A DNA stretch of 19,342 nt from an uncultured bacterium (GTDB taxonomy: Bacteria > Patescibacteriota > Saccharimonadia > Saccharimonadales > Saccharimonadaceae). The notes under the pieces were generated by a model that saw only the letters and a list, made by a program, of their open reading frames with translations, had not been told where the DNA came from and searched no databases. The stretch is from assembly GCA_903844835.1 (NCBI GenBank), contig CAIMUU010000049.1, positions 1 through 19,342 on the forward strand, in the 5' to 3' direction. The position numbers and the translations under genes were made by a program. Positions 2,479 to 11,379 of the stretch are shown here, in pieces (the stretch's first letter is position 1; the number at the start of each line of letters is the position of its first letter).

Positions 2479-3066
2479 GTGAATAAGAAACAAATACTTC
2501 TTGAGCAAATTGCGGTAGATATTATTAAAAACAATATCTGCCCAGATTTGGCTCAAGAAGCCAAGAACCTAGTGATGGGCGATGGTAATATTGACGCCGA
2601 AATCATTCTAATTGGTGAAGCGCCAGGCAAAAAAGAGGATGAGACGGGGTTGCCATTTGTAGGGGCTGCTGGCAAATTTTTGAATGAAATGCTAGCTGGT
2701 GCCGATATTAATCGAAGTGACGTGTTCATTACAAATATTGTTAAATACCGGCCACCCAATAATCGTGATCCATTACCGGAAGAAAAAGCAGCCTTTTGGC
2801 CATACTTGGTACGTCAGCTGGACGTCATACAACCACAAATTGTTGTGACATTAGGCCGACATAGCATGGAATATTTTCTTCCGAACCAAAAGATAAGTTT
2901 AATTCACGGCCAGCCAAAAAGGATAAAATTTGGTGACAGTAAATTAGTAGTTGTACCGCTATACCATCCAGCCGCTGCACTTTATAACGGCGGTATGCGA
3001 GCCACACTAATAGATGACTTTAAAAAGTTACCAAAAATAATCGAAATTATAAAAAATAATAAATAA
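2479..3066 (+). CDS. Uracil-DNA glycosylase superfamily protein, family-4-like (SPO1 DNA polymerase-related type)
   Basis: 195 aa with a GTG start. Motif A is IGEAPGKKEDETGLPFVGAAGKFLNEML. NIVKYRPPNNRDP and motif B PLYHPAAALYN are also present. The protein contains only one cysteine (see finding). Confidence 0.85.
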   Translation: MNKKQILLEQIAVDIIKNNICPDLAQEAKNLVMGDGNIDAEIILIGEAPGKKEDETGLPFVGAAGKFLNEMLAGADINRSDVFITNIVKYRPPNNRDPLPEEKAAFWPYLVRQLDVIQPQIVVTLGRHSMEYFLPNQKISLIHGQPKRIKFGDSKLVVVPLYHPAAALYNGGMRATLIDDFKKLPKIIEIIKNNK

Positions 3067-3112
3067 TAACCATTGAAATTTCATAGAAATTTTGTGGACA
3101 AGGAGAAAAAAT

Positions 3113-5263
3113 ATGGGTCAACAAAGACTCAAGAACGTCCAAGGAGACGACCAATCAAGACGACCGAATGTGCCAACCCGGCAGAGGTCAGACAATACCG
3201 TATTAAATAATACGACTATCAAAAGAGGTGAGGCCTACCGGGCTCAACGTCGCACCAGCGAGAATGTAAATATGCGGGCAAGCCAGCATGTTATTAATGT
3301 ACCAGTTAACAAATCAACCTATAACGGCTATGATGGCCGACAATATAGCCCAGTTGATAGTAAAAAACAGCCACGTTTTAACGGCCCAAAATTGCGGATT
3401 ATCCCTATTGGTGGCTTGGGCGAAATGGGCATCGGCAAGAATATGATGGCATTTGAATACGACAATGAAATTATTGTGATTGATTGTGGGCTATTATTCC
3501 CGGGGCCTGACTATCCAGGGATTAATTACATTATTCCTGATATTACATATCTAGAAGAGAACAAACACAAGATTCGAGCAGTGATTTTCACGCACGCCCA
3601 TCTTGACCATATTGGCGCTTGCCGTCATATATTAGAGAAAATTCCTGCACCAGTTTATGCGACCAAGTTTACAATCAATATGATCCAAAAAAACATGGAA
3701 GAGTCGAATGGCGATTATCTGCCACAGTATAATGAGCTGAATCCAGAAAGCCACGACCAAGTTCAGATTGGTGATAATTTCAGAATTGAGTTTGTCAGAG
3801 TTGACCACTCAATACCGGATGCTGCCGCGATTGTTATTCGAACTCCAATTGGAGTTGTCGTCCATACTGGCGACTGGCGTTTCGAAGATGCGCCAATTGA
3901 CGGTAAAAAATTTGATATGGCCAGATTGACTGAGATTGCCAGCAAAGAGGGCATTTTGATGCTACTAAATGAGTCAACTAACTGTGAATCTGATGGCTCA
4001 CATACCCATAACGAACTCGATATTCAAGAGAGTATCGGTCAAGTTATGGACAAATTTACTAACAGTCGAATTATTTTAAGTTGCTTTAGTAGCCACATTC
4101 ATCGCATGCAAGAGATTTTAGAAGAGGCTAAAAAACACGATCGCAAAGTATCATTTGCAGGCTATAGTATGATTCAGAATCTTGAAGTGGCACTGCGCAG
4201 TGGCGTAATCAAAGTTCCAAAAGACGTTGTCGTCAAAATGGAAGACCTCGTTAAATTGCCTGATGGAAAGGTCACGATTGTCTGTACTGGTTCTCAGGGT
4301 GAATTTACGGCTGTCTTGAATCGTATGGCTAGCGGTAGTCATAAATTTATCAAGATTAAAAATTCCGATGTAATTGTCTTTAGCTCGAACCCAATCCCAG
4401 GCAACGAAAAATATGTCACACACACGGTGGACGGCTTGATGCGAGAGGGTAGCGATGTTATCCAAAATAACAAAACTCACCTTACCGGCATAGGGCCATT
4501 ACACCTTTCGGGTCATGCCTATTATGCCGACCACGTTCAGTTAATAACTGCATTGAATCCAAAATACTATTTGCCAATTCACGGTGAGTTTCATATGTTG
4601 GTCCATAGTGCCGAGATTGCCGAAAAGATTGTCGGCATCAAGCGCGAAAATATCTTTGTTTGCGACAATGGTGACATAGTTGAACTAACTAATGATGGTG
4701 CCAGAAAGACCGGCCGAATTACGGTTGGTGGTGTTATGTATGACGACAGCGGCGCAATCGTTTCTGAAGTTGTTCTAAAGGACCGAATTCATATGGCTAC
4801 CGAAGGAATGTTTGTGGTCGTTCTGACTGTTCAGCGGGGTAGTGGACGGCTTATGACTAGCCCAGATATTATCAGTCGTGGTTTTATATACTTACGCGAT
4901 AGTGAGGAGTTAATGGGTACGATTCGCCAGTATCTCAAGCAAAAAGTTGCTAAGAGCTTTTCTGGCAAGCACGTTGATTTGGATGCCGTCAAAAAAGAAC
5001 TCAAAGACGAAATCACGCATATTTTGTATGACCAAACTAGGCGCACACCGATTGTTATTCCAGTAATCAATGAGATTGGTGGAAATAACAATATCAGTGG
5101 AGTCAATGCTCCGAATACTCGCACTCATCAACCTCAAGACAAACCAAGACAAAGCAGTAGTCAGTTTATTGCACCTGTTAAACCAGTCACTTTTCAATTG
5201 CCACAAGTGCCAGACTCTGAAGCAACCGAGCCACGTGGGCGAATTGATTACCGCGGTTATTAG
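3113..5263 (+). CDS. rnj: Ribonuclease J (metallo-beta-lactamase / beta-CASP RNase) with long N- and C-terminal low-complexity extensions
   Basis: Diagnostic motifs are LRIIPIGGLGEMGKNM, the HxHxDH motif FTHAHLDHIG, HTGDWRF, GSQGE and HLSGHA. I prefer the ATG at 3113 (SD aaggaga at 3100-3106) over the TTG at 3092 used by the ORF track. Confidence 0.92.
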   Translation: MGQQRLKNVQGDDQSRRPNVPTRQRSDNTVLNNTTIKRGEAYRAQRRTSENVNMRASQHVINVPVNKSTYNGYDGRQYSPVDSKKQPRFNGPKLRIIPIGGLGEMGIGKNMMAFEYDNEIIVIDCGLLFPGPDYPGINYIIPDITYLEENKHKIRAVIFTHAHLDHIGACRHILEKIPAPVYATKFTINMIQKNMEESNGDYLPQYNELNPESHDQVQIGDNFRIEFVRVDHSIPDAAAIVIRTPIGVVVHTGDWRFEDAPIDGKKFDMARLTEIASKEGILMLLNESTNCESDGSHTHNELDIQESIGQVMDKFTNSRIILSCFSSHIHRMQEILEEAKKHDRKVSFAGYSMIQNLEVALRSGVIKVPKDVVVKMEDLVKLPDGKVTIVCTGSQGEFTAVLNRMASGSHKFIKIKNSDVIVFSSNPIPGNEKYVTHTVDGLMREGSDVIQNNKTHLTGIGPLHLSGHAYYADHVQLITALNPKYYLPIHGEFHMLVHSAEIAEKIVGIKRENIFVCDNGDIVELTNDGARKTGRITVGGVMYDDSGAIVSEVVLKDRIHMATEGMFVVVLTVQRGSGRLMTSPDIISRGFIYLRDSEELMGTIRQYLKQKVAKSFSGKHVDLDAVKKELKDEITHILYDQTRRTPIVIPVINEIGGNNNISGVNAPNTRTHQPQDKPRQSSSQFIAPVKPVTFQLPQVPDSEATEPRGRIDYRGY

Positions 5264-10548: not shown

Positions 10549-11379
10549 ATGCCAAAGCAACGGTTGGATGTAGCGTTAACTCAGCGCAAGTTAGCGGCCA
10601 GTCGTTCTCAGTCCGAAAATTGGATTAAATTAGGTAAGGTCTTAGTTAATGGTCAGGTTGTTATGAAACCTGGTCATTTTGTTGGCCCGGATGTTGATAT
10701 AAAAATTACGGCTGAAGTTCAATATGTTAGCCGGGCAGGCCTGAAATTAGAATCAGTTGCCGATGTGTTGAAGCTTGATTTTAGAAATAAAGTTGTGCTC
10801 GATGTCGGCAGTAGCACTGGTGGTTTTACTGATTTTGCCTTACGTCATGGTGCCAAGAAAGTATATGCAGTTGATGTTGGGACCGACCAAATGCATCCAT
10901 CACTGAGGCATAATAAACAAGTTGAATTACATGAAAAGACCGATATTCGTGACTATTTAATGGACGAAATGCCCGATATTGTTGTGATTGACGTGTCGTT
11001 TATTAGTTTGCGGGAAGTTTTGCCCCATATTTACAATTCGTTATCAGACAAGTCGACTCAAGTTGTAGCGATGGTTAAACCGCAGTTCGAAGTGCGTGCT
11101 GAAATTAACCAAAGCACGCATGCTGAGCGAAGCCGAAGCACTGTTAAGATGCCCAACCCTTCGACAGGCTCAGGGTTTTGCAGTTCTCGTAAGGGCGAGA
11201 ACGTGCTCAATAAGGGCGTTATTAAAAACGATTCGATGCGCCGTCAAATTCTAAAAGATTTCGAAGATTGGTCCCGAAAATATTTTGTTATTCAAAATAA
11301 ACGTGATAGTGATGTGGCTGGGGCAAAAGGCAATCAAGAGCGATTTTATTTATTGCGAGCAATAAATAAAATCAAGTAG
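10549..11379 (+). CDS. tlyA: TlyA-family rRNA 2'-O-methyltransferase (S4 domain plus FtsJ-like methyltransferase) carrying a 34-aa in-frame insertion
   Basis: 276 aa. The S4-like N-terminus is RLDVALTQRKLAASRSQSENWIKLGKVLVNG. The SAM-binding site is VLDVGSSTGGFTDFALRHGAKKVYAVDVG. VIDVSFISL, VKPQFE and a C-terminal GAKGNQERFYLL are also present. Confidence 0.87.
   Translation: MPKQRLDVALTQRKLAASRSQSENWIKLGKVLVNGQVVMKPGHFVGPDVDIKITAEVQYVSRAGLKLESVADVLKLDFRNKVVLDVGSSTGGFTDFALRHGAKKVYAVDVGTDQMHPSLRHNKQVELHEKTDIRDYLMDEMPDIVVIDVSFISLREVLPHIYNSLSDKSTQVVAMVKPQFEVRAEINQSTHAERSRSTVKMPNPSTGSGFCSSRKGENVLNKGVIKNDSMRRQILKDFEDWSRKYFVIQNKRDSDVAGAKGNQERFYLLRAINKIK
11107..11208 (+). repeat. Nested-palindrome element of about 102 nt inserted in frame in tlyA (boundaries approximate)
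   Basis: Inverted repeat pairs: agcacg/cgtgct (11113-18 / 11202-07); ctgagc/gctcag (11123-28 / 11168-73); cgaag/cttcg (11134-38 / 11159-63); tctcg/cgaga (11185-89 / 11196-200). The segment encodes NQSTHAERSRSTVKMPNPSTGSGFCSSRKGENVL. This falls where TlyA homologs, as I recall them, run KPQFE, about 8 aa, then KGG. Confidence 0.5.

Follow-up and report, generated by a model that had tools for sequence, protein, structure and literature searches.

The window, by which the whole analysed stretch of 19,342 nt is meant (contig CAIMUU010000049.1 of assembly GCA_903844835.1), contains a tlyA gene in which the loop following the KPQFE motif of the encoded rRNA methyltransferase has been replaced by a palindromic, in-frame cassette (Table 1). 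The source assembly belongs to the Saccharimonadales (candidate phyla radiation, CPR; TM7) and comprises 664 kb with a guanine-plus-cytosine (GC) content of 42% at a completeness of about 90%. Both domains of TlyA are recognised by Pfam (S4, 6e-12; FtsJ, 9e-31), the AlphaFold2 model of the protein resembles the TlyA structures 3hp7 and 7s0s_B, and the gene has the same GC content as the genome. In the following, G000 denotes the source genome, L-numbers denote loci and P-numbers TlyA protein clusters; the closest ortholog, P0002 on locus L004, served as the reference empty allele. The two sequences are 97.7% identical over 1003 nt up to base 11092 and 99.7% identical over 309 nt from 11209 on, while the 116 nt between these flanks (11093-11208) correspond to 17 nt in L004 (CGGGTATTGGTCAAACT, read A-G-I-G-Q-T). 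Since 116 nt thus stand in place of 17 nt between near-identical flanks, the event is a replacement; it makes the filled allele 99 nt (33 codons) longer, and the first affected codon is the one directly 3' of KPQFE. A clean insertion with target duplication was rejected for the same reason, as 17 nt have been replaced. The cassette has a GC content of 53-55%, compared with 42% for gene and genome, and its reading frame is open and free of stop codons. A preliminary description of this DNA had recognised a hairpin segment with a preserved frame, which holds (its composition is foreign as well), but had set its limits at 11107-11208 (102 nt, 34 codons) and had taken KPQFEVRAEI as native flank; the real block begins at 11093, right after KPQFE, so that "VRAEI" belongs to the insert.

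The segment preceding the cassette ends with the last bases common to the empty allele and includes TTCGAAG, which is similar to the GTCGAAG arm of the element. Three hairpins follow, of which hairpin 1 is a degenerate additional copy of the left arm that is clearer in orthologs (CATGCTGAGCATGGTCGAAGCATG in L061). In the core palindrome, CTGAGC..CGAAG (11123-11138) pairs with the CTTCG..GCTCAG that lies inside 11155-11175. The inverted repeats named in the preliminary description are all present, with AGCACG at 11113 and CGTGCT at 11202 (a further CGTGCT lies at 11095), CTGAGC at 11123 and GCTCAG at 11168, CGAAG at 11134 and CTTCG at 11159, and TCTCG at 11185 and CGAGA at 11196. The predicted in-frame translation includes ...STVKMPNPSTGSGFCSSR as an example of the insert peptide.

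Table 1. Features of the tlyA locus in the window, and copies of a second palindrome family elsewhere in the source genome.
Feature	Position	Strand	Remarks
tlyA (16S/23S rRNA cytidine-2'-O-methyltransferase)	10549..11379	+	276 residues, intact open reading frame
KPQFE codons and first base of the next codon	11077..11092	+	L004 alignment ends at 11092
Inserted cassette	11093..11208	+	116 nt replacing 17 nt of the canonical loop; in-frame reading (V)RAEINQSTHAERSRSTVKMPNPSTGSGFCSSRKGENVL
Hairpin 1, TGCGTGCT ... AGCACGCA	11093..11120	+	DNA fold; comparison of seven cassettes
Core left arm CTGAGC-GAAGC-CGAAG	11123..11138	+	Translation (A)ERSRS
Core right arm AACCCTTCGACAGGCTCAGGG	11155..11175	+	Translation NPSTGSG; identical to the cross-phylum 19-mer
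Hairpin 3, GCAGTTCTCG ... CGAGAACGTGC	11180..11206	+	tlyA-specific 3' module of the cassette
NKG codons	11209..11217	+	Point where identity with the empty allele resumes
Copies of the second palindrome family in G000	C58:5443-5503, C71:2178-2241, C71:11937-11999, C43:5822-5885, C33:10288-10326		

The residues lost from the filled allele are the canonical AG(K)GQT loop of TlyA. Empty alleles align gap-free with solved TlyA structures (KPQFEAGIGQTNKG against KPQFEVGKGQVGPG of Mycobacterium tuberculosis), the empty-allele stretch KPQFEAGIGQTNKGVIKND corresponding to KPQFEVGKGQVGPGGVVHD of the latter. Because of this colinearity the empty state is probably ancestral, and it could not be regenerated by deletion of the cassette. 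If the lysine of KPQFE is Lys182 of the M. tuberculosis protein, as we take it to be from the numbering of the K-D-K-E tetrad, the replaced loop would hold the equivalent of Lys189. In the 50S complex of M. tuberculosis TlyA this Lys189 contacts the helix 69 tip, and its exchange for alanine has only a modest effect (PMC9168844). In the AlphaFold2 model residues 182-223 have a predicted local distance difference test score (pLDDT) below 50 and sit between a confident strand (171-176) and a confident helix (228-242), and the rest of the TlyA fold is confident, so that the insertion, which the preliminary description had placed in a surface loop, falls in a stretch modelled as disordered in place of the canonical loop. 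Given the modest effect of Lys189 and the disordered model with an intact fold, the insertion site is, as far as the model goes, a peripheral, permissive loop of TlyA.

The canonical linker of 7 residues is present in 101 of the 120 closest protein clusters, and 15 have a homologous insert at exactly this position of tlyA, their linkers being 19-48 residues long. The cassettes occur with a full core, with a tandemly doubled left arm, with a doubled right arm, with 9-nt expansions, or as the left half or the right half only, and all recovered filled alleles are in frame (n = 19; 15 protein clusters and four DNA-pattern matches). A DNA pattern for hairpin 3 matched four JGI metagenome contigs, in all four cases in tlyA. 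Every match to this pattern falls at one and the same tlyA position and keeps the frame. From the distribution as a whole it is concluded that the cassette is probably of single origin and tied to tlyA, and that it would have moved between tlyA backgrounds. On a quick TlyA tree, for which the linker was removed before inference, the filled alleles do not group together; their pattern takes at least 12 state changes, at least five of them forced by well-supported branches, with a mean of 14.4 changes after shuffling of the state labels, and three well-supported sister pairs differ in state (P0001/P0002, P0030/P0072 and P0101/P0120). The nearest relatives are without the insertion, as had been anticipated: besides L004, all four same-genus species searched are empty, and among 384 genomes of the order hardly any is filled. 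When 400 species of the order were sampled, the TlyA matches among those listed broke at about residue 182, that of G487 excepted. The tlyA gene of this genome (L042; G487:C62, minus strand, family f30) carries a different, 66-residue insert at the same site after KPQFE, which starts, as the cassettes do, with CATTGCTGAGC, has a GC content of 57% and folds very strongly (-58 kcal/mol as DNA). A second variable TlyA site lies after EKTDIR(N/D)V(Y/F) in L061, L062 and L063, with 14-23 extra residues (…HLPST…); it was considered as another palindrome insertion and rejected, short direct repeats being present there (CTACCATCTAC), and is probably a slippage expansion.

The exact TlyA protein of the window is known from a single contig only, as would be expected of an assembly or binning artefact of a metagenome-assembled genome; the junctions, however, are clean and in frame, and homologous in-frame cassettes are present in independent ENA, JGI, Logan and NCBI assemblies, which brings the chance of an artefact close to nil. 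Stable hairpins within a coding region are a hallmark of known bypass elements, and since the cassette has such hairpins, it might also stay untranslated, being either excised from the mRNA or skipped by the ribosome like the T4 gene 60 gap or mitochondrial "byp" elements. Yet all variants are in frame and stop-free despite many insertions and deletions (15 clusters and four DNA-pattern matches), which argues against bypass or splicing, neither of which would require such a state. Coding palindromes do occur in mitochondria (PMC6649704). A group I or II intron or an intein was rejected, as the cassette is too short and has no Rfam match, and removal or bypass of the segment is on the whole highly improbable.

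The codon positions were compared as mean pairwise differences over seven filled loci. For the flanking tlyA codons, positions 1, 2 and 3 differ at 0.12-0.16, 0.05-0.07 and 0.48-0.50, as is typical of a gene that is constrained at the protein level and whose synonymous sites are saturated. The corresponding values for the 3' module are 0.32, 0.18 and 0.22, and this lack of a third-position excess indicates that the peptide is not what has been conserved. Between the window and L061 the 3' module is 9% different, compared with 54% at flanking third positions, so that the cassette is either younger than the divergence of the host genes or constrained at the nucleotide level. These values also bear on the possibility that the segment is an adaptive protein loop, a lineage-specific extension of the contact surface for helix 69 that is kept for its amino-acid sequence. 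It does replace the loop in which the equivalent of Lys189, the residue at the helix 69 tip in M. tuberculosis TlyA, would lie, its peptide is mildly basic, and AERSRST, NPST and SGFRSSR recur among filled alleles. These recurrent motifs, however, are translated palindrome arms, the codon positions carry no purifying signature (0.32, 0.18 and 0.22 against 0.14, 0.06 and 0.49 in the flanks), the loop is predicted to be disordered and its halves are freely lost. Furthermore, where a word-indexed protein search with the insert had been uninformative, returning nothing beyond the query, an exhaustive HMMER search with the 39-residue peptide against 1.84 billion cluster representatives gave two spurious repeat proteins only; the insert peptide being without relatives there, a conserved protein module was rejected, and an adaptive loop is decidedly unlikely.

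The low divergence is likewise relevant to the question of whether the loop could be ancestral in the Saccharimonadales and have been lost repeatedly. The preliminary description had regarded homologs at the same position in other lineages as the sign of such an ancestral loop, and homologous segments are in fact found at the identical position in several families of the order (e.g. G487, f30). The ancestral loop is nevertheless disfavoured because of the patchy distribution, the canonical empty alleles and the low divergence of the cassette, which is less diverged than synonymous sites. The empty alleles carry the pan-bacterial loop at the length found in M. tuberculosis TlyA, which deletion cannot recreate, and theirs is the state of 101 clusters among the 120 closest and of almost every one of the 384 order-level genomes; the GC content of the cassette is foreign to the genome, and neither basal filled alleles nor deletion scars in empty ones were seen. 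Repeated loss of an old loop is therefore very improbable.

The cassette folds better than shuffled sequence, a comparison named in the preliminary description: the RNA of the plus strand folds at -43.2 kcal/mol (z = -2.5), with none of 200 dinucleotide shuffles as good, and the DNA fold has a z of -3.3, with one of 200 shuffles as good. Over seven diverged cassettes the stems are 94% paired, compared with 28-43% for slid controls; in hairpin 3, 98.6% of cells are paired and two pairs are changed on both sides. Paired columns of the 3' module differ at 0.13 and unpaired columns at 0.30. Scanned with Rfam, neither this region nor ten loci of other phyla had a match on the element. The retained stems with their double-changed pairs, the stronger conservation of paired columns without a third-position excess, the divergence of the module far below that of flanking synonymous sites and the fold scores (z = -2.5 to -3.3) would all suit a selected nucleic-acid element, the hairpins of which act in cis in DNA or mRNA, for instance in the stability of the mRNA, in pausing, as a site bound by a protein or as a signal for recombination or replication, with translation as a side effect. 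By contrast, several lineages keep only one half of the core, so that the core hairpin is dispensable, and most orthologs, including those of all same-genus species, are without the cassette. No Rfam family matches, and the covariation is modest, being reached by 43 of 500 shuffles, while templated correction in palindromes can mimic compensatory change. A selected function of the nucleic acid is thus rather unlikely, if less so than an adaptive protein loop.

Motifs found in the cassette recur outside tlyA. The arm motif CTGAGC-N2-4-GTCGAAG (15-16 nt) occurs at five sites in this genome, against none for the reversed control and about 0.06 expected, and over 120 other genomes of the family it gave 24 matches against eight in the control. 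Apart from tlyA, this genome has it in the leader peptide-coding parts of a pair of pilin paralogs, in the 5' untranslated region of a typA-like gene and in a spacer rich in repeats. In the two type IV pilin paralogs the arm CTGAGCGTAGTCGAAG (C28:2738-2753 and C105:2720-2735) is read LRLRSG between duplicated G-F-T-I (MKRHLSSLVGFTI-LRLRS-GFTIIELL), and it has the appearance of an in-frame insertion of 27 nt, accompanied by a direct repeat of 12 nt, directly before the prepilin cleavage site. At C102:1114-1128 (L002) a solo complement of the right arm, CTGAGCCTGTCGAAG, has as its 3' end a GGAG Shine-Dalgarno sequence, 10 nt upstream of the start codon of a typA/bipA-like GTPase gene. A looser pattern, CTGAGC..CGAAG..CTTCG, gave mostly chance matches over 200 family genomes but revealed G036, of the same family, with at least seven copies of a palindrome TTGTCATYCTGAG..CGAAGRATC..GATYCTTCG..CTCAGRATGACA. 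Five of these are in frame, in host reading frames that by eye are pheT, trmB, rnhA, murD and tatD-like, and are read CHPERSEGS...AQNDK, in the same phase as HAERSRS of tlyA; the rnhA and tatD sites are empty in those same-genus genomes in which they were located. The palindrome family of G036 is present in six of 150 further order genomes, partly in frame. With a covariance model of this family (R1; TGTCAT...ATGACA palindromes), the tlyA cores were the top, though weak, matches in 51 kb of loci, the match in the window lying at 11123-11173 (12.2 bits, E 0.84) and the same core being matched in L061, L007 and L063. In G000 a second palindrome family, from which the tlyA cassette differs in sequence, has a GC-rich core of 64 nt (ACATCTGCAGCCCGAGTTCAATAAGGCGCCGGGGCCCTTAGTGGACGCGGCGCGAAGCCGTGTT) with copy-specific outer stems and at least five copies, that on C58 lying in frame in an mnmA-like open reading frame of 427 residues.

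The reach of the right arm is wider still. The preliminary description had pointed to a resemblance to widespread palindromes, and this was borne out: the right arm CCCTTCGACAGGCTCAGGG is a 19-mer, CCCTTCGACA(A/G)GCTCAGGG, of which at least 137 exact copies were counted, spread over at least 120 contigs, where about nine would be expected by chance. These contigs belong to Bacteroidota, Cyanobacteria, Proteobacteria, Actinomycetota, Chloroflexota, Acidobacteriota, Planctomycetota, Nitrospirota and several CPR groups. A complementary CTGAGC-N2-4-GTCGAAG arm lies within 150 nt in 53 of the 137 listed matches, and CGAACGG follows directly after 31 of the 137. With these cross-phylum CTGAGC..GTCGAAG / CTTCGAC..GCTCAG modules the tlyA cassette shares the right arm, identical over 19 nt, and a left arm of the same two-stem layout. 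The cross-phylum modules, however, appear to be mostly intergenic (as judged by eye), often stand in arrays and are often bounded by CCGTTCG...CGAACGG, whereas these outer arms are absent from all tlyA cassettes compared, which have an extra private hairpin instead. A stretch of 22 nt identical to the right arm lies in another gene of G319, and at L085 (G319:C4:44388-44425) and L137 (positions 3039-3057 of the Saccharibacteria contig CAYWFM010000007.1) the right arm stands in frame in genes other than tlyA, where it is read NPSTGSG and PSTSSG, respectively, in the same phase as in tlyA. No published name was found for the cross-phylum modules, and text searches for the arm sequences or their translations found no relevant paper.

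The preliminary description had called the segment like a Rickettsia palindromic element (RPE) or a miniature inverted-repeat transposable element (MITE). RPEs are short palindromes that lie in frame in Rickettsia genes (Ogata et al., 2000, 2002; as summarised in PMC10969869). As that summary presents them, the tlyA cassette shares their anatomy, being a short coding palindrome in frame in a conserved housekeeping gene of a reduced-genome bacterium, of 116 nt with three hairpins as against stable hairpins of about 100-150 bp, and leaving the host protein intact, with the added peptide at a place compatible with the fold (for the cassette according to the predicted model). In the same account RPEs form families of about 150 bp with tens of dispersed copies per genome, whereas there is one full copy of the tlyA cassette. 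The cassette, unlike RPEs, is confined to a single position in one gene, where it takes the place of 17 nt, and different species would share it by lateral transfer. Homology in sequence to RPE-1 to RPE-10 is not to be expected, the lineages being unrelated. Thus the likeness to RPEs stands for the anatomy and the effect, while multiple copies in the genome are missing; a MITE was rejected in view of the absent target-site duplication and the lack of a parent transposase with matching ends.

In population behaviour the closest known analogue would be the GC clusters of var1 in yeast mitochondria, for which unidirectional gene conversion is the means of spread (Hudspeth, 1984; Strausberg and Butow, 1981; as summarised in PMC8811140); the distribution of the tlyA cassette is suggestive of similar behaviour. 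To the extent that these sources describe them, both are optional, in-frame, GC-rich palindromes at a fixed position of a gene in an AT-richer genome, with presence/absence polymorphism between near-identical alleles (here the window and L004, and other sister pairs). They differ in that var1 belongs to an organelle, where biased conversion is reported to have been demonstrated genetically, whereas tlyA lies in a free bacterial genome, where biased conversion is a proposed mechanism, and the two are without sequence relationship. The cassette also resembles repetitive extragenic palindromes (REPs) and bacterial interspersed mosaic elements (BIMEs), which are short imperfect palindromes and mosaics of modules. 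REPs are normally extragenic and species-specific, whereas the core arm of the tlyA cassette is common to many phyla. Genes for Y1 transposases like the REP-associated tyrosine transposases (RAYTs) are present in this genome (C47) and stand directly beside tlyA in two filled loci. The RAYT-like Y1 genes between tlyA and ychF encode about 200 residues and have their own REPs, ATTCAGGGTTNAACCCTGAAT and CCAGGGTGNCACCCTGG, which flank them at L007:3881-3917 and 4612-4637 and at L058:2266-2286, 2327-2347 and 3071-3091; in L058 the 3' end of tlyA itself contains one of the REPs, which alters the C-terminus of TlyA. The palindromes flanking the RAYT-like genes, (A)TYCAGGGTKNMACCCTGRAT, differ from the cassette, and the CTGAGC..CGAAG motif is absent beside the Y1 genes of L052, L053, L054, L007 and L058. 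The cassette was therefore rejected as the cognate REP of these transposases, since they are flanked by a different REP of their own.

At a probability of about 0.6, the segment is a translated, RPE-like palindromic cassette of single origin that has spread laterally by recombination. It would be a small non-autonomous palindromic DNA with the behaviour of a selfish element and not of a protein part, composed of the widespread hairpin module (CTGAGC-N3-GTCGAAG / CTTCGAC-N2-GCTCAG) and a second hairpin, that entered tlyA once in some ancestor within the Saccharimonadales, where it replaced six residues (AG-K/I-GQT) of the loop after KPQFE. The cassette would be kept in the mRNA and translated as a disordered, mildly basic loop of about 39 residues, which may be tolerated because this part of TlyA makes merely peripheral contact with the tip of helix 69. 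Persisting as an optional allele, it could be moved by homologous or short-patch recombination (gene conversion) via the strongly conserved tlyA flanks, and recombination of this kind would have given it to the present lineage while the closest relatives keep the canonical loop. Later changes would comprise in-frame duplication of arm pieces and in-frame deletion of one half. The low divergence of the cassette and its scattering on the tree favour lateral spread by recombination as the probable vehicle. Between the window and L004 there are 23 mismatches in 1003 nt upstream of the insert and one in 309 nt downstream (Fisher p = 0.026), and this step in divergence hints at a recombination endpoint at the heterology. 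In the same pair, a synteny breakpoint lies 140 nt downstream of tlyA, between 11517 and 11518 of the window and between 1329 and 1330 of L004; their near-identity ends with the tlyA-ychF spacer, and L004 has an ArsP_2 permease gene in place of ychF.

Several observations weigh against this history. The dispersed copies expected in the preliminary description were not met with, as no second full copy of the cassette was found in the 664-kb genome, and a covariance model of the 3' module (R2) gave no convincing second location in about 300 species representatives; the composite cassette being single-copy, present-day transposition is at most hypothetical. Its junctions, compared with L004, have no terminal inverted repeats with a target-site duplication, and no donor-derived single-nucleotide polymorphisms are evident in the flanks; the step in divergence across the insert is no more than suggestive. 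The R1 scores on the tlyA cores are weak (18.8, 17.1, 14.2 and 12.2 bits; E 0.02 to 0.84), and what the tlyA core has in common with the multi-copy families, as a putative homolog, is a short core sequence. A selected function of the nucleic acid, finally, would be equally compatible with the low divergence and the conserved stems. A variant in which the cassette is a homing-type hairpin element, that is, a tiny non-coding palindrome made from the cross-phylum hairpin module that actively converts empty tlyA alleles at this one site across species boundaries, is possible but not likely; it might proceed through breaks induced by the hairpins, through a nuclease or Y1 enzyme acting in trans, or through microhomology of the TTCGAAG of the target with the GTCGAAG arm of the element. 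Overall, the first interpretation was largely right in kind, with the difference that the palindrome in tlyA is a single-site, probably horizontally shared optional cassette and not a dispersed repeat.

If spread of a translated cassette by recombination is correct, the essential genes of ultra-small CPR bacteria, like genes of Rickettsia, put up with selfish hairpin cassettes and exchange them, with the added feature of one gene site at which an optional cassette crosses species lines. The cassette would then be a natural marker of recombination between Saccharibacteria lineages, and the loop after KPQFE is marked as a permissive site of TlyA. For annotation and protein-family alignments it advises caution, as lineage-specific "loops" may be translated repeats. 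The locus further offers a tractable case for the question of what spreads a hairpin module with a 19-nt arm that is identical in many bacterial phyla; a cassette of the homing type would, moreover, be the bacterial equivalent of the var1 GC clusters of yeast mitochondria and could help to explain how the module spreads across phyla.

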